The notes beneath the pieces are model-generated. The model did no database searches. It was given only the letters and a program-made list of their open reading frames with translations, and was not told the origin of the DNA. A DNA stretch of 32,000 nucleotides, from assembly GCF_000009605.1 (NCBI RefSeq), contig NC_002528.1, positions 240,001 through 272,000 on the forward strand, given 5' to 3'. This document shows, one piece after another, positions 2,367-28,529 of this stretch; within the stretch, counting starts at the first letter, position 1; each line of letters opens with the position of its first letter. The position numbers and the translations under genes are program-made. The DNA is from Buchnera aphidicola str. APS (Acyrthosiphon pisum) (lineage in GTDB: Bacteria > Pseudomonadota > Gammaproteobacteria > Enterobacterales > Enterobacteriaceae).

Positions 2367-3727
2367 TTTTTTTTGCTCTCCTTAATAAGATCTTCTACTA
2401 CTTTTTCCATTTTTGTACTACGAGATCCTTTAACTAATATGGTTATTTTTTTTTTCTTTAAAAAAACATTTTTTAAATATTCGCTTAATTTTTTTTTATT
2501 TAAAAAATGTTTGCCATTATTAAAAATTTTAGTGATTTCACTACTCATATCACCAATGCTAAAAATTTTATTAATTGCAGATGAATTAGCAGTATTTCCT
2601 ATCATTTGATGATACATCATACTGTTTTCTCCTAATTCGGCCATATCTCCAGTTACTAATATTTTATAACCTGGCATTCTTTCTAAAACTTTTATTGCTG
2701 AAATCATAGATGAAACGTTAGAATTGTAGGTATCATCAATTAAAATTTTATTGGGTTCTAGTATAATAGACTCTAATCTTTTTGAAACAATAGGTGTGTC
2801 CAATAGTCCTATTTTTATTTTTTTTAAAGGTATTTTAAGCGCAAATGAAAAGGCACTAGCTGCTAATGCATTAGATATGTTTTGGTAACCTAAAAACGGT
2901 AATGAAATATTTATTTTTCCACACGGTGTATGCATCGTAAAAGATGTGCCATGTATATGAATTTTAATATTACTACAAAAAAAATTACTATATTTTTTTT
3001 TTTTAATAGAAAAGAACAAAATATTACTGTTCTTTATGTCTTTTTTCCATTGTGAAAAATGATGACTATCTAAATTAATAATAACTGTACTATTAGGTTT
3101 TAAACCAGAAAATATTTCTGATTTTGCTTTAGATACTCCTAATAATGATTTAAATCCTTGTAAATGAGCACAATGAATATTATTAATTAGTATAATATCT
3201 GGTTGACTGATATTACTAGTATAAGCAATTTCGCCCGGTTTACTCGCACCTAATTCAATCACACCATATTTATGTTCTTGTTTTAATTGAAGTAAAGTCA
3301 TTGGAACACCAATATTATTGTTTAAATTATCAATAGTAGATATTGTATTCCCATTTTTCCTAAGTATAGAGGCCGTCATTTCTTTTACTGAGGTTTTTCC
3401 ACAAGAACCGGTAATAGCTAATATTTTTGCCTTAGTTTTTTTGCGAACCCAGCCAGCAATTTGACCTAACGCAATAGAAGTATTTTCCACTATAATATAT
3501 GGAACATGGGGTTTTATATTTTTTTGTGTAACAAATGCAGCACACTTTTTTTTTAAGGCATCGTGTATAAAAATATGAGCATCAAATTTTCTACCTATTA
3601 AAGCAATAAAAAGACAACCTGGAATAATTTTTTTAGTGTCTATGACAATTTCATTTATTAACAAATCTGCTCCATATAGCGTTCCGTTCGTTATTAAAGC
3701 AATTTTTTTTAATGATAAAGAAATCAT
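2360..3727 (-). CDS. murF: UDP-N-acetylmuramoyl-tripeptide--D-alanyl-D-alanine ligase MurF
   Basis: 455-aa ORF with Mur-ligase ATP site ITGSCGKTSVKEM. It lies between murE and mraY, with an ATGA overlap onto the murE stop. It contains in-frame A12 (2993-3004) and A10 (2446-2455) runs. Confidence 0.94.
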   Translation of the reverse strand: MISLSLKKIALITNGTLYGADLLINEIVIDTKKIIPGCLFIALIGRKFDAHIFIHDALKKKCAAFVTQKNIKPHVPYIIVENTSIALGQIAGWVRKKTKAKILAITGSCGKTSVKEMTASILRKNGNTISTIDNLNNNIGVPMTLLQLKQEHKYGVIELGASKPGEIAYTSNISQPDIILINNIHCAHLQGFKSLLGVSKAKSEIFSGLKPNSTVIINLDSHHFSQWKKDIKNSNILFFSIKKKKYSNFFCSNIKIHIHGTSFTMHTPCGKINISLPFLGYQNISNALAASAFSFALKIPLKKIKIGLLDTPIVSKRLESIILEPNKILIDDTYNSNVSSMISAIKVLERMPGYKILVTGDMAELGENSMMYHQMIGNTANSSAINKIFSIGDMSSEITKIFNNGKHFLNKKKLSEYLKNVFLKKKKITILVKGSRSTKMEKVVEDLIKESKKKC

Positions 3728-5217
3728 ATATTTTTTCCTAATAAATTTAATACTATTTTTTTATCTGAATAGTTTATAGATCTATTTTGAATTATTTGTT
3801 TTTCTTCGTGTCCTTTTCCAGCTATTAAAATTATATGATGATATTTTGCTCCGAAATAAGCATAAGATATTGCTTTTTTTCTATCAGGGATAATTAATAT
3901 TTTTTCCTTATTTTTACAACCATTTAAAATATCTTGAATAATTTTTTTTTCTTTTTCATTTCTGGGGTTGTCATTAGTAATGATCACTTTATCTGACATT
4001 TTTTCTGCAATAGCACCCATAATAGGGCGTTTTTTTTGATCTCTTTCTCCTCCGCATCCAAATATACACCATATATATCTTTGGTAATGTGAATGAATGG
4101 CATTAAGTGTTTTTTTTAGTGCATCAGGTGTATGAGCGTAATCGATAATAAAAGTTGGTTTTTTGACATAAGAAAATAATTCCATTCGACCCTGTACTGG
4201 TATTATTTTTTCAGACGTATGGATTAAGTCTGATAAACTATAGCCTAGTTCTAAAAGACAAGCTAATGACAACAGGAGATTAGTGACATTAAAACGTCCA
4301 ATTAAACAAGAGGATATTCTTCCTGTTCCCCAACTAGATTCAAATGTAATATAAATGGAATTATTATTCTGTTCAATATTAGTGGCATTAATCCATTTTG
4401 TAGAATATTTTTTTTGTTTTCTGTTTTGAATAGTAACAGCTACTGTGTAGAAATTAAGTAGTTTTTTTAACCATATTTTCCCATATTGATCATCAGCATT
4501 TAATATAATTTTTTTTACCTTATGTGTACTAAATAATAACCATTTTGCGGATTCATATTTTTCCAAATTTTCATGATAATCTAAGTGATCTTGAGTTAGA
4601 TTAGTGAAAATTGCAATATAAAAAGGAACTTCTTTAACGCGATGTTGTATCAAACCATGTGAAGAAACTTCCATAGTCACTAATTCAGCTTGTTTTTCTA
4701 AGACTTTAGATAAGAATAGTTGAATAAAAATAGGCGAGGAAGTTGTATTATTTGTAGGTTGCAAAGAATTATAAAAACCATTTCCTAAAGTTCCCATAGT
4801 TGCTGTTTTTGTACCTAAAATTGTACTCCACTGATTGATTAATTGTGTTACCGTAGTTTTTCCATTAGTACCAGTTATGCCAATGATTTTTAATCTCTTT
4901 CCTGGTTCTTTATAAAAACGATTTGCTAACAATGATACATTTTCAGATAGTTTAAAAAAGTATATTAGAATAACATTCTTGATATATTTAAATATTCCAT
5001 GCTTATCTTTTTTTTTAGTTTCACATAGAATAGCTGCTGCTTTTTTATTAATAGCTTGAACAATGAAATGACGGCCATCTTTTTTTATCCCCGGAACTGC
5101 TATAAACAAATCTCCTGGAGTTAAAGTTCTGCTATCCATCTTCAAATTTGAAATATATTTTTTTGGAATATTTTTAATCCATGGTAATAATAAATATTTT
5201 AAGCAAATTTTATTCAT
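3724..5217 (-). CDS. murE: UDP-N-acetylmuramoyl-L-alanyl-D-glutamate--2,6-diaminopimelate ligase MurE
   Basis: 497-aa ORF with P-loop GITGTNGKTTV and a DNPR motif (ITNDNPRNE) typical of DAP-adding MurE. The N-terminus LLPWIKN...LKMDSRTLTPGDLFIAVPG parallels E. coli MurE. The start abuts the ftsI stop. Confidence 0.95.
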   Translation of the reverse strand: MNKICLKYLLLPWIKNIPKKYISNLKMDSRTLTPGDLFIAVPGIKKDGRHFIVQAINKKAAAILCETKKKDKHGIFKYIKNVILIYFFKLSENVSLLANRFYKEPGKRLKIIGITGTNGKTTVTQLINQWSTILGTKTATMGTLGNGFYNSLQPTNNTTSSPIFIQLFLSKVLEKQAELVTMEVSSHGLIQHRVKEVPFYIAIFTNLTQDHLDYHENLEKYESAKWLLFSTHKVKKIILNADDQYGKIWLKKLLNFYTVAVTIQNRKQKKYSTKWINATNIEQNNNSIYITFESSWGTGRISSCLIGRFNVTNLLLSLACLLELGYSLSDLIHTSEKIIPVQGRMELFSYVKKPTFIIDYAHTPDALKKTLNAIHSHYQRYIWCIFGCGGERDQKKRPIMGAIAEKMSDKVIITNDNPRNEKEKKIIQDILNGCKNKEKILIIPDRKKAISYAYFGAKYHHIILIAGKGHEEKQIIQNRSINYSDKKIVLNLLGKNI

Positions 5218-7021: not shown

Positions 7022-7090
7022 TTATTTTTTTTGAACTGTAGAATGAATAGATAAAGAATTTTTTTCAATTATTAAATTTCTCCATTCATC
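7022..7090 (-). other. ftsL: out-of-frame conserved 3' segment of ftsL (DEWRNLIIEKNSLSIHSTVQKK*), reachable only with one extra A in the upstream run
   Basis: Hand translation of the minus strand from 7090: GAT GAA TGG AGA AAT TTA ATA ATT GAA AAA AAT TCT TTA TCT ATT CAT TCT ACA GTT CAA AAA AAA TAA (stop 7022-7024). It matches E. coli FtsL ...[21 protein letters not shown].... Confidence 0.75.
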
Positions 7091-7275
7091 ATTTTTTTTT
7101 TTTTTTTTTGAATAACATCTTCTTCTTCTGTAATTAATAATCGAGTATTATAAACTGTAATGATGACTAAGCTAGCTGATAATATAATAGCTATTAATAA
7201 AGTTAAATGAATTTTCCCATATAAAAGAAAATCATTTTTGATGATTTTAGGTAAATCATAACGTTGAATTTTCAT
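7072..7275 (-). CDS. ftsL: cell division protein FtsL, truncated as encoded (67 aa); the reading frame is lost inside an A18 run
   Basis: YDLPKIIKNDFLLYGKIHLTLLIAIILSASLVIITVYNTRLL aligns with the E. coli FtsL TM region (...[40 protein letters not shown], recalled). The ORF then ends KKKKKMMNGEI* straight after the homopolymer. It lies between rsmH and ftsI. Confidence 0.85.
   Translation of the reverse strand: MKIQRYDLPKIIKNDFLLYGKIHLTLLIAIILSASLVIITVYNTRLLITEEEDVIQKKKKKMMNGEI
7092..7109 (-). repeat. 18-nt poly(A) homopolymer inside ftsL (T18 on the + strand)
   Basis: Counted directly: 9 T at 7092-7100 plus 9 T at 7101-7109, flanked by a (7091) and g (7110). Confidence 0.97.
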
Positions 7276-7277
7276 AT

Positions 7278-8216
7278 TTATTCTTGTATTTCTGCGATAC
7301 GAAGTACGGAGCTGCGAGCTCTAGGATTATTATTTATTTCATTTTGTGTAGGTAATATACGATTTATAATTTTTAATTTACATGTTGTTAACCTATTTAA
7401 TTGTTCTTCCGTAATAGGCATTCCGTATGGAATAATTGCTTTTGTGCTGTTTTTAATCATGAATTTTTTTACTAATCTGTCTTCTAAAGAATGAAAACTA
7501 ATAATAGATATACGTCCTCCTGGCTTAAGTATTTTTAGCGTGCTTTCTAAAGCTTTTTGAATTTCTTCTAACTCTTGATTGATATAAATTCTAATTGCTT
7601 GAAAACTCCTTCTTGCTGGATGTTTAAATTTATTTTTTGTTGGTATAGTTTTTTTAATAATGTTGGCTAATTCTAGAGTACTGGTTATTTTTTTTATTTG
7701 ACTTCTACGTTTGATAGCATAAGCTATTTTTCTTGAAAAACGTTCTTCTCCGAAATTTTTTAAAACAAAAGAAATTTCTTTAACATTACTTTCAAAAAGC
7801 CATTCGGAAGCAGAAATTCCATAATTAGGATTCATTCGCATATCTAAAGGGCCGTCATTTTTAAATGAAAAACCTCTTCTATAATCGTCAATTTGTATTG
7901 AAGAAACTCCTAAATCAAATATAATTCCATTTACTTTCCCTATAATTTTTTCATTTTTTGCAAAATCTAATAATTTTGAAAAATTTTCATTAATTATATG
8001 AAAACGTGAATCTTTGATTTCACTTCCTATGGAGAAAGCAATGGGGTCTCTGTCAATAGAATATAATCGACCATTTTGTCCTAATTTTTTCAAAATTTCA
8101 TTTGAATGTCCACCTGTTCCAAATGTACTGTCAATATAAATACCGTTTTTTTTTATTTTTAAAGAATCAATTAGTTCTTTTTTCATTACTGGAATATGTT
8201 TAAATATGTGATTCAT
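7278..8216 (-). CDS. rsmH: 16S rRNA (cytosine1402-N4)-methyltransferase RsmH (MraW)
   Basis: 312-aa ORF with SAM-binding [10 protein letters not shown], plus [11 protein letters not shown] and [17 protein letters not shown] blocks typical of RsmH. It is the first gene of the dcw cluster here; no mraZ lies upstream. Confidence 0.95.
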
Positions 8217-10534: not shown

Positions 10535-10849
10535 TTTTTTCCTCCAGGATACTAATTTATTAGGTTGTATTTCCTAGATCTCTATCTATCAGTTTATCCT
10601 GTAGTTCATCTAGATAAAATTAGCACTATTTAGTTTAAAAGATTATAAAAAATTCAAAAAATTTATTTTTAATGTTATGTTTTATTTAAGAAGTCATTTT
10701 AAATGATGTCATGTTTTATTACTATTAAATGAAAAATTAATTTTGATTTTTATTATTGCAAATATATCAGATATTATCAATTAATAGAAAGTATTAAGTA
10801 TTATTTAATGTAATTTAGTTTTTATATGTTGAATGATTGGAATATTTTT

Positions 10850-11907
10850 TTCAACTAAAAATCTTTTAAATTTAGGTGAGATCCATGTTGAAAAAACATT
10901 TTTTTTTTGAGTAATAAGACATACCGCTAATTTCTCTTTTAATGCTAACTTTTGAGCTTTTCTAAAACCTAGTATTAATAATCCTGTATCCCAAGCGTCT
11001 GATTCTAAAGCTGTTGAGGAAATTACACTAACTGAAACTAAATTATGATGTATAGGTTTGCCGCTATGAGGATCAATTAAGTGCGAAATATGTTTTCCTT
11101 CAAGAGAATAATAATTACGATAACTGCCTGCTGTACTGATTGCATTATTCTTTAAATATACAAGTAAGTGTATTGATTTTCTTCTATCAACAGGTTTTTG
11201 AATTGCGATAATTTTATCTTTTCTTGTATTTTTTTCTACTTTGACTAATACAGCTCCTCCTACTGAGATAGTATAATTTTTTATTTTTTTTTTGTAAGTA
11301 TACGTGACAAATGATCTACAGCAAAGCCTTCACCAAGAGTGGAAAGATTAATTTCTATCCCATCTATATCTTTTTCTAGAAACATCCCAAAAGAATTTTT
11401 AATAAGTTTTAAATGTTGACTTCCGGAAAGGAAAATTTTTTCTTTTATTTTTTTTTTAGAAGGATAATGAGTGAGTTTTTCTTTAGTGCCAAATCCCCAC
11501 ATATTAATTAATCGACTAATTGTAATATCTAATTTCCCATTAGTTTTTCGATTAATTTTTAGGGCGGTTGAAATAATTTTAAAAAAATCTTGATTGATTA
11601 TTTGACGCTGATGTTTTTTTAGTCTATTAAATTGAGATACAAGAGAATTTTTCTTCCAAGAAGAAAGCATTTTTTCATCTTCATCTAAATTTTGTTGTAT
11701 TAAATTTTTTATGTATTTTTTATTTTTTAAATTAGGGATCTTGACTTGCCAATATGTACCCATAGTTTTTCCTGTTAATGTTGCAATATTTTGTTTTTCT
11801 CTATCTAAATATCTATTATAAAAATTAACGACTATAAATATAAAAAAAATAAAAACACTGTAAATAATTTTTAAGAACATAAATAATATTATTCTCCTAA
11901 TTAACAA
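10850..11907 (-). pseudogene. apbE: FAD:protein FMN transferase ApbE, frameshifted at an A10 run (N-terminal 208 codons at 11907-11281; C-terminal ~144 codons at 11287-10850 in another frame)
   Basis: The N-terminal ORF (LTGKTMGTYWQVKIP...DITISRLINMWGFG...LSTLGEGFAVDHLSRILTKKK*) matches E. coli ApbE up to ...ADHLARLMEQEG. Hand translation of the next frame gives IKNYTISVGGAVLVKVEKNTRKDKIIAIQKPVDRRKSIHLLVYLKNNAISTAGSYRNYYSLEGKHISHLIDPHSGKPIHHNLVSVSVISSTALESDAWDTGLLILGFRKAQKLALKEKLAVCLITQKKNVFSTWISPKFKRFFS* (stop TGA 10850-10852). This matches the E. coli C-terminal half (ISRYLVSVGGA...GISTSGSYRNYYELDGKRLSHVIDPQTGRPIEHNLVSVTVIAPTALEADGWDTGLMVLG...WMSPQFKSFLV). Confidence 0.88.
11284..11293 (-). 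repeat. 10-nt poly(A) run at the apbE frameshift site
   Basis: The + strand reads tta tttttttttt g (T10 at 11284-11293). The minus strand reads ACA AAA AAA AAA TAA. With 11 A it would read ACA AAA AAA AAA ATA AAA AAT TAT ACT, which joins the two halves. Confidence 0.95.
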
Positions 11908-28190: not shown

Positions 28191-28529
28191 CTTTTAAACT
28201 CTCAAAAATAAAAATTTTTTTATTAAAAATAGAATTGTATGTTTAAAAAAATTTGTTTTTGCATAGTAAATTTAATTTTACTATATGATAAGATCTTTTC
28301 TTAAATAATTTATTTAAAGTTAATATATATCAAAAATATAAATATATAGAATTTTCAATTATCATAAAAATGATATTTTTTTAAAAAAATAAAGATCAAT
28401 ATATTATGTTAATATTTTTAAAAAATAGATCAAGTCTGGTTGTTTCTTTAGCAAAATTAACTTGTTTTTTTTTTAGTACAGAGGTTTAATGAATTTTTTA
28501 TGTATAAATAGTGGTTAAAAATATTTACA

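Follow-up and report, generated by a model that had tools for sequence, protein, structure and literature searches.

Poly(A) runs are sites at which RNA polymerase tends to add bases that the DNA does not encode, and in insect endosymbionts this error can restore genes whose frame has been broken within such runs. For the poly(A)-frameshifted cell-wall genes of aphid symbionts, corrected transcripts reportedly amount to 12-50% (Tamas 2008, as relayed in PMC5009743 and PMC3164680). In the Buchnera of Acyrthosiphon pisum, 151 of 157 insertions arising during transcription were located in A/T homopolymers and 80% were of a single base (PMC5574713), and their frequency rises exponentially as runs get longer, up to the 11 nucleotides examined (PMC5574713). 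In Citrobacter rodentium, the A11 tract of tssM gives rise to a frameshifting of ~20-25% (PMC4256274). The locus analysed here is ftsL, the gene of a cell division protein, in a 32-kb stretch of the genome of Buchnera aphidicola str. APS (32,000 nucleotides, positions 240,001 to 272,000 of contig NC_002528.1; hereafter, the window), which was studied with the aid of a list of its open reading frames (ORFs) with their translations. All coordinates are window positions. An uninterrupted run of 18 adenines (A18) separates the first 67 codons of this gene from a conserved segment in another frame, and we hold, with moderate confidence, that the gene has a genuine -1A frameshift within a hypermutable tract, probably read through mainly by transcriptional slippage.

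The locus resembles the described cases in its basic elements. Slippage rescue goes together with a sense-strand A-run of at least ~9 (PMC1088944, PMC5574713), and that of ftsL has 18; a change of one base in the tract restores a complete homologous ORF, with an open and conserved downstream frame. Furthermore, nearly all of the homopolymer frameshifts that have been catalogued in Buchnera are -1A (Degnan 2011 Table S3), which is the class of lesion that the dominant +1 transcript error would repair.

The A18 tract and the two frames of ftsL

The 5' ORF of ftsL encodes a short cytoplasmic N-terminus, a transmembrane helix and the proximal part of a coiled coil, followed by KKKKK-MMNGEI. Its product, of 67 residues, reads MKIQ...VIQKKKKKMMNGEI, and a second in-frame stop codon stands directly after the first one. 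In the frame offset by one base, the DNA reads NDEWRNLIIEKNSLSIHSTVQKK up to its stop codon, without any internal stop (Table 1). The T18 run, the 67-residue ORF and the stop-free tail in the offset frame had been described in an earlier note on this DNA, with which both the sequence and the ORF check agree. When tract lengths of 15-22 were simulated, A16, A19 and A22 joined both parts, into products of 83, 84 and 85 residues, respectively; the proposal of the earlier note that one additional A restores an FtsL of ~84 residues is thereby borne out, and two lengths that it did not mention (A16 and A22) restore the frame as well. The separate expression of the tail was considered and discarded, given that its frame contains no ATG, GTG or TTG before the stop and that the membrane anchor would also be absent. 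The short ORF of 67 residues bears the annotation 'cell division protein FtsL' in some genomes.

This tract is the longest homopolymer of the window, the runners-up having 12 and 10 bases. The G+C content is 26% (composition count), and by our own arithmetic ~3e-4 runs of at least 18 T would be expected in 32 kb from the base composition.

Identity of the out-of-frame tail

Its homology identifies the out-of-frame tail as genuine FtsL. The A19 product can be aligned, with no gap, to residues 20-99 of E. coli FtsL (PDB 8hhf chain L; E = 3e-16), and this gapless alignment is obtained only with A19. It follows that the E. coli sequence given in the earlier note, and the spacing of 16 residues that it counted between TRLL and EWRNL, are correct. 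The profile scores change in the same direction when the tail is added to the 67-residue ORF. With PF04999, whose cut-off of 22.9 bits the ORF already passes (34.7), the restored 84-residue protein reaches 64.3 bits; with TIGR02209 (cut-off 42.45), the ORF fails (22.8) and the restored protein passes (47.7); and the score with NCBIfam NF008040 goes from 45.4 to 73.1 bits. The latter, which is the enterobacterial full-length FtsL equivalog, has a cut-off of 96 bits that the restored protein does not reach, its match ending at position 87 of the 109 in the profile. By itself, the tail of 23 residues matches positions 55-76 of PF04999 (E = 4e-4), in direct continuation of the match of the ORF to positions 1-53.

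The restored protein also has the bitopic architecture of FtsL, with a short cytoplasmic N-terminus, one transmembrane helix, whose hydrophobic stretch HLTLLIAIILSASLVIITVY aligns to the transmembrane segment of E. coli FtsL, and a periplasmic helix that is continuous with it. In the AlphaFold model of an in-frame allele from the same species (P0001), a single helix extends from residue 8 to residue 82 (mean pLDDT 87.7), and the conserved lysine block that the tract encodes is in the middle of it. The earlier note stated that the periplasmic coiled coil is lost in the DNA-encoded product; a segment is lost indeed, but it is the distal third only (E. coli ~78-99) and not the whole coil. Its description of the restored FtsL as short at both ends holds, since the counterparts of E. 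coli residues 1-16 and 100-121 are missing, as they are in all Aphidinae Buchnera FtsL.

Functional residues on both sides of the frameshift

In E. coli, it is FtsL that relays the 'go' signal to FtsWI, the synthase of septal peptidoglycan. The residues involved have been mapped: mutations in the AWI patch, which acts through FtsI, produce a dominant-negative FtsL that is unable to activate FtsWI, E88 and G92 belong to the constriction-control domain (CCD), E88K is an activating allele with which less FtsN is needed, and L24 and I28 recruit FtsW (PMC7733951). With an alignment offset of 16, the Buchnera tail spans E. coli W81 to S95, and the AWI positions R82, N83, L84, L86, E87 and A90, together with the CCD positions E88 and G92, fall in it. 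Specifically, R66, N67, L68, I70 and E71 of the restored protein correspond to R82, N83, L84, L86 and E87, and are encoded by the out-of-frame tail only. L8 and I12, the counterparts of L24 and I28, lie in the 5' ORF and do not vary within Buchnera. Of 101 homologs, 100 share the residue of E. coli E87. According to this mapping, the frameshift falls between the membrane anchor and the putative FtsWI-activating patch.

Another position of the tail deserves a comment. At the site of E. coli E88, all 22 of the 22 intact Buchnera FtsL have a Lys (codon K72 in the window, 7056-7058). Its interpretation as a Buchnera-specific 'FtsN-bypass' adaptation was rejected after the survey of 101 homologs, where E is found in 51, K in 30 and Q in 14, that is, Lys also occurs beyond Buchnera.

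As for the C-terminal end, residues 100-121 of E. coli FtsL bind FtsQ. The absence of this end from Buchnera FtsL fits the absence of its partners, as ftsQ is present in 0% of Buchnera genomes and ftsK and ftsN are also absent, according to a review (PMC10591338). At ~84 residues, the Buchnera protein would thus be an FtsL with no FtsQ-binding end, in which the residues that recruit FtsW and those that activate FtsI are kept.

Tract states across Buchnera lineages

When the restored product was used as a query against 5.8 billion proteins, 22 intact Buchnera FtsL of 80-88 residues were retrieved, all of them with the tail, and WRNLIIE is invariant in 21 aligned FtsL (20 from Buchnera and one from Providencia). 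Related strains were sampled by exact-protein look-ups and by one metagenome scan, two of whose six matches were ftsL. Neither protein patterns nor a degenerate DNA pattern for WRNLIIEK[N/Y] returned any Buchnera from the species-level genome collection.

Among the A. pisum-type loci, the length of the tract switches the frame between very close strains, with A13, A16, A17 and A18 on near-identical flanks; those of the window, for instance, are ~99.7% identical to A. pisum Buchnera CP002302.1 (9 single-nucleotide polymorphisms, SNPs, in ~3.2 kb). The window shares its shifted A18 with six further assemblies, which are independent and come from different sequencing runs; together with the window, they represent at least three projects and three flanking haplotype groups. 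The in-frame states are A16 (83 residues), in CP002302.1 and one other A. pisum-type assembly, and A13 (82 residues), in one assembly. On one A. pisum-type metagenome contig, the tract is A17 and shifted the other way. On this contig (L018; JGI Ga0209545_101199, tract at ~84-100), FtsL would end right after the K-block, and a change of -1 or +2 would be needed; this contig represents a true allele or else exemplifies the ±1 uncertainty of the consensus. When the loci are sorted by their flanking SNPs, A18 appears in all three haplotype groups, A16 in two and A13 in one, which suggests, on grounds of parsimony, that the shifted A18 is ancestral among the sampled A. pisum strains and that the in-frame alleles were derived at least twice.

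The same out-of-frame state is found in three other lineages, all of which need +1A: the Buchnera of D. noxia, with A13 and the same 67-residue product on four complete-genome-sized contigs; SRR19400219, also with A13; and CP034870.1, where the tract is A9-C-A10, as it is in two independent ERR runs. In the three of them, the break is at the same K-block and leads into the same MNGEI-stop frame, and the tails are open, with WRNLIIEKN intact. The CP034870 type has in addition an in-frame allele (A10-C-A10, 84 residues; SRR33317141), separated from the shifted loci of this type by no more than 2 SNPs in ~3.2 kb. The four shifted loci are mutually only 78-81% identical and have the tail stop at about the same place, and one additional A gives the loci of the window, D. 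noxia and CP034870 the same distance of 16 residues from TRLL to EW as in E. coli. Regarding the tail core, its identity to intact relatives is 0.84-0.89 in the shifted lineages and 0.66-0.89 in the intact ones, and it is nearly invariant even at synonymous sites, in a stretch of only 22-23 codons, a length that offers little power for dN/dS. The earlier note had made its case depend on a tail that stays open and conserved in relatives, and this is what is found, both in the 22 intact Buchnera FtsL and in the three additional shifted lineages. The recurrence at shorter tracts in these lineages makes the phenomenon itself robust. Directly observed are the lesion and where it lies, a tail that is homologous and conserved, the recurrence across lineages and the variation in tract length.

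Other forms of FtsL were seen along the way. Four proteins of other Buchnera lineages, P0070 (from the Buchnera of Baizongia pistaciae), P0098 (Chaetogeoica), P0068 and P0043, agree with the family as far as an IIKKKQ or K-rich block and have no EWRNL tail beyond it, which may reflect an earlier instance of this lesion that has since decayed, or else true divergence. In Logan assemblies, three proteins (P0075, P0175 and P0176) form one 90% cluster of enteric-type FtsL, with an intact form of 105 residues and, beside it, a 67-residue form (...LVLEKMYWILNGAT, on 11 contigs) and one of 63 residues; these short forms resemble frameshifts at the equivalent site, immediately before EWRNL, in organisms other than Buchnera.

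A proposed route to full-length FtsL

With A18, the DNA is one A short of A19, and its faithful translation would end at 67 residues, before the segment expected to activate FtsWI. RNA polymerase would slip on the run of 18 A and give rise to transcripts of mixed lengths, among which the +1 class (A19) is expected to be the commonest error and would restore the frame, in such a way that a functional FtsL of 83-85 residues could still be made. The sliding of ribosomes on the A-run, a possible second route that the earlier note had not foreseen, and the heterogeneity in length among the many genome copies of each cell may add to this. At the same time, replication slippage would keep producing alleles in sister strains, some of them in frame (A16, A13) and another not (A17), and an out-of-frame allele could persist and spread because rescue blunts selection. 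That the tail is expressed via slippage is what we infer from the locus, transcriptional slippage being the best-supported route.

Published data on transcription errors in Buchnera can be placed on the window. One +1A transcript insertion maps exactly onto the A10 frameshift site of apbE. Three more insertions (LSR1 243583 +A, 244067 +A and 248185 +AA) map to A-runs in intact genes, which shows that this operon region undergoes slippage at ordinary runs. In the CirSeq indel lists published for Buchnera, whose authors analysed runs of up to 11 nt only, there is no event at ftsL (~LSR1 247,130-247,148), and due to that ceiling this gap is read as no data and not as a negative.

Alternative explanations

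Several considerations weigh against the reading proposed here. Whatever the sequencing platform, the length called for an 18-nt homopolymer carries an uncertainty of ±1, and one A. pisum-type contig has A17; since the tract is polymorphic among close strains, which the earlier note had not foreseen, toggling at the DNA level and a ±1 consensus error are live alternatives. The A. pisum strains are too close to each other for the tail to have decayed, so its conservation within the species says little. In-frame alleles recur (A16 twice, A13, and A10-C-A10 in the CP034870 lineage), and the shifted state may simply be a transient one with a mildly deleterious effect. A lower protein output is to be expected from six AAA codons in a row as such (PMC4363877). 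Lastly, some Buchnera clades have no ftsL or no EWRNL tail, and FtsL is therefore not indispensable in every Buchnera. One may thus ask whether the true modal length of the DNA is in frame (A19), with an intact ftsL and A18 as a systematic under-call, an explanation that we regard as unlikely. Public assemblies of nearly identical strains do have 13, 16, 17 and 18 bases, and A19 is the length that gives the canonical spacing, as in E. coli and most Buchnera. Moreover, stutter at such long runs usually shortens them. However, the presence of A18 in the window and in six further assemblies, from at least three projects and on three flanking haplotypes, weighs against a one-off assembly error, no A19 product is found among the homologs retrieved from the 5.8-billion-protein collection, and the same out-of-frame state occurs in three lineages with shorter, more reliably called runs (A13, A13 and A10), in the case of D. 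noxia on four contigs. Also rather unlikely, in our estimation, is a recent pseudogenisation with no rescue, whereby the 67-residue product would be inactive or dispensable and the tail would be intact only for lack of time. It would be in keeping with the fact that genes of Buchnera are inactivated mainly through homopolymer indels (PMC3164680), with a review in which ftsL is present in only 84% of the Buchnera genomes from Aphidinae and absent from all those from Lachninae (PMC10591338), with the lack of the EWRNL tail in the Buchnera of Baizongia and Chaetogeoica, and with the handful of SNPs per 3 kb that separate the A. pisum strains. Frameshifts similar to the one described here may in turn explain some of the absences behind that figure of 84%. 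Nevertheless, four lineages that are 78-81% identical have each an open tail with WRNLIIEKN untouched, and mraY, murF, murE, ftsI and rsmH of the dcw cluster in the window are all intact, so that the pathway activated by FtsL is maintained. The derived A. pisum alleles, which are mostly in frame (A16 twice and A13, versus A17 once), point in the same direction in a suggestive way only (p ~0.1, own arithmetic).

Two further explanations accept a rescue and place it at another level. If ribosomes slid on a faithful A18 mRNA and some of them exited in the tail frame, rescue would be mainly translational; E. coli ribosomes do slide on lysine-encoding A-runs of at least 11, well below the length of this tract, and emerge in other frames (PMC4363877). 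We deem this quite improbable, because the main effect described for sliding is that output is lost when translation terminates prematurely, and not that the frame is corrected efficiently (PMC4363877), because no stimulatory structure is predicted 3' of the tract (a 96-nt fold from the tract onward has a minimum free energy of -8.5 kcal/mol, with z = 0.01 versus shuffles), and because the mechanism that has been measured in aphid symbionts is transcriptional slippage, although both routes are compatible. Programmed ribosomal frameshifting was rejected on the basis of the same lack of 3' structure, and no Rfam family is found anywhere in the window. In turn, a rescue at the DNA level would require that replication slippage in polyploid cells keep a within-host mix of A18 and in-frame copies, the latter supplying FtsL. 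The variation of the tract between otherwise nearly identical strains, in two lineages, the high polyploidy of Buchnera (Komaki and Ishikawa 1999, as cited in PMC3164680) and the validated within-host homopolymer indel polymorphisms of other Buchnera (Table S2 of PMC3164680) speak for it; yet each assembly resolved one tract length, in a comparison made at the level of assemblies, and we give this explanation very little credence. A real frameshift that is read through mainly by transcriptional slippage is, hence, the reading that we favour.

Genomic surroundings and other homopolymers

In the first third of the window, the minus strand carries mraY, murF, murE, ftsI, the short ftsL, rsmH, ilvH and ilvI (dcw cluster). 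The gene ftsL is located between rsmH (mraW) and ftsI, all on the minus strand, and this order is the same in all related loci; ftsI starts 64 nt downstream of the restored ftsL stop. Among the strains in Degnan et al. 2011, an intact murF, as found in the window, is a feature of the 'Tokyo'/APS lineage only. The coordinates of these and other features are collected in Table 1.

Table 1. Features of the 32-kb window considered in the text
Feature	Position	Strand	Basis or remarks
ftsL 5' ORF, DNA-encoded, 67 aa	7072..7275	-	ORF list; Pfam FtsL 34.7 bits, profile positions 1-53
A18 homopolymer, oligo-Lys block, frameshift site	7092..7109	- (T18 on + strand)	sequence and length simulation
Out-of-frame ftsL tail, (N)DEWRNLIIEKNSLSIHSTVQKK and stop 7024-7022	7022..7091	-	~E. 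coli FtsL residues 78-99
rsmH (mraW), intact, 312 aa	7278..8216	-	directly upstream of ftsL; Pfam Methyltransf_5 in related loci
ftsI (PBP3), intact, 579 aa	5218..6957	-	Pfam PBP_dimer and Transpeptidase in related loci
Published insertion sites	murF 3537-3554, murE 4021-4038, rsmH 8137-8154	- (genes)	mapped LSR1 positions
apbE, split at A10	10790-11907; A10 = T10 at 11284-11293	-	matches 'apbE -1A (10A)', Degnan 2011 Table S3
Long T runs besides ftsL A18 and apbE 11284-11293	2446-2455, 2993-3004, 10899-10908, 11448-11457, 28465-28474	+ (T)	

The window has seven runs of at least 10 bases, every one of them of T on the + strand, and six of the seven are sense poly(A) in minus-strand genes: A10 and A12 in murF, A18 in ftsL and three A10 in apbE. 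The frame is broken at two of these six, and both runs of murF are in frame. The + strand genes between 12 and 32 kb of the window contain no A-run longer than 9.

A second split gene, apbE, is found ~4 kb from ftsL, with both of its halves intact. Its N-terminal part has 208 residues, matches positions 1-147 of Pfam ApbE and ends in ...TKKK; the next frame is open for ~170 codons and matches ApbE positions 149-264, +1A being needed to join them. The gene of FtsB, the coiled-coil partner of FtsL, is listed with '-1A (9A)' in the Buchnera of Uroleucon ambrosiae (Degnan 2011 Table S3), whose FtsL (P0005) is intact.

Implications for the Buchnera divisome

If full-length FtsL came only from slipped transcripts, a regulator of an essential pathway would be dosed by the infidelity of the polymerase, which would constitute a clean natural case of such a control. 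The unusually long tract and the existence of natural in-frame and out-of-frame alleles in near-identical strains of a model symbiosis make a direct comparison possible. The minimal FtsL of Buchnera, in turn, would approximate the core that is sufficient in the absence of FtsQ, FtsK and FtsN, and this is of interest for the study of the divisome. Going one step further, the tract might act as a heritable dosage rheostat for the divisome activator, whose length would set the yield of full-length FtsL and hence the rate of division, although we consider this a distinctly doubtful proposition. Alleles (A13, A16, A17 and A18; A9-C-A10 versus A10-C-A10) would then be sorted by selection at the level of the host and contribute to the differences in symbiont titre between aphid clones, and the presence of the +1A-requiring state in four lineages would reflect selection for low output, beyond mutation pressure alone.

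Comparison with known systems

Homopolymers that act as switches are a first term of comparison. The Buchnera ibpA promoter is said to carry a homopolymer polymorphism, with heritable tract-length alleles that switch expression, reportedly the subject of Dunbar et al. 2007. Similarly, in homopolymer contingency loci (PMC2831843), heritable tract-length alleles switch the frame or the expression between very close strains, as at ftsL. A difference lies in the clonal, bottlenecked and polyploid nature of Buchnera, given which phase variation in the classical sense would be only a possibility at ftsL.

The tssM of C. rodentium (A11; PMC4256274) and the dnaX of Thermus thermophilus (A9; PMC1088944) resemble the reading proposed for ftsL in that realignment of the RNA polymerase on an A-run leads to two length variants of the protein from one gene, with a C-terminal interaction domain that is present only in the slipped product. 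Both of them were demonstrated experimentally, whereas ftsL is known from its sequence, and dnaX is a programmed system with two products. The sliding described by Koutmou et al. 2015 (PMC4363877) also takes place on iterated AAA codons (at least 11 A's) in a bacterial ORF, whose frame is lost or changed in translation, but there it is an error that reduces the output of reporters and not the rescue of a natural frameshifted gene.

The closest systems are found in the endosymbionts themselves. The slippage-rescued frameshifts of Buchnera and Blochmannia (Tamas 2008; Wernegreen 2010), as described in papers that cite this work, share with ftsL the sense poly(A) run in an otherwise intact gene of an AT-rich endosymbiont, the single-base indel, the open and conserved downstream frame, the function in the cell envelope or in division, and the fact that the same gene is struck in several lineages. 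In contrast to them, slippage at ftsL is deduced from sequence, and its A18 exceeds the maximum of 14 in the table of Degnan 2011. The genes in that table, which include apbE, murF, ddlB, fabD and cmk (Degnan, Ochman and Moran 2011 Table S3), belong to the same genomes and present the same kind of lesion, mostly -1A and in need of +1A, with an inactivation that recurs independently across lineages; unlike these cases, in-frame alleles of ftsL are also carried by close strains. The gene ftsL is not among the homopolymeric frameshifts of Buchnera in Table S3, nor was its frameshift found in the literature that names Buchnera and ftsL, as represented largely by titles and abstracts. The kind of event is, in short, well known (Tamas 2008; Wernegreen 2010; Degnan 2011), and ftsL is most likely a further, previously uncatalogued example of it.

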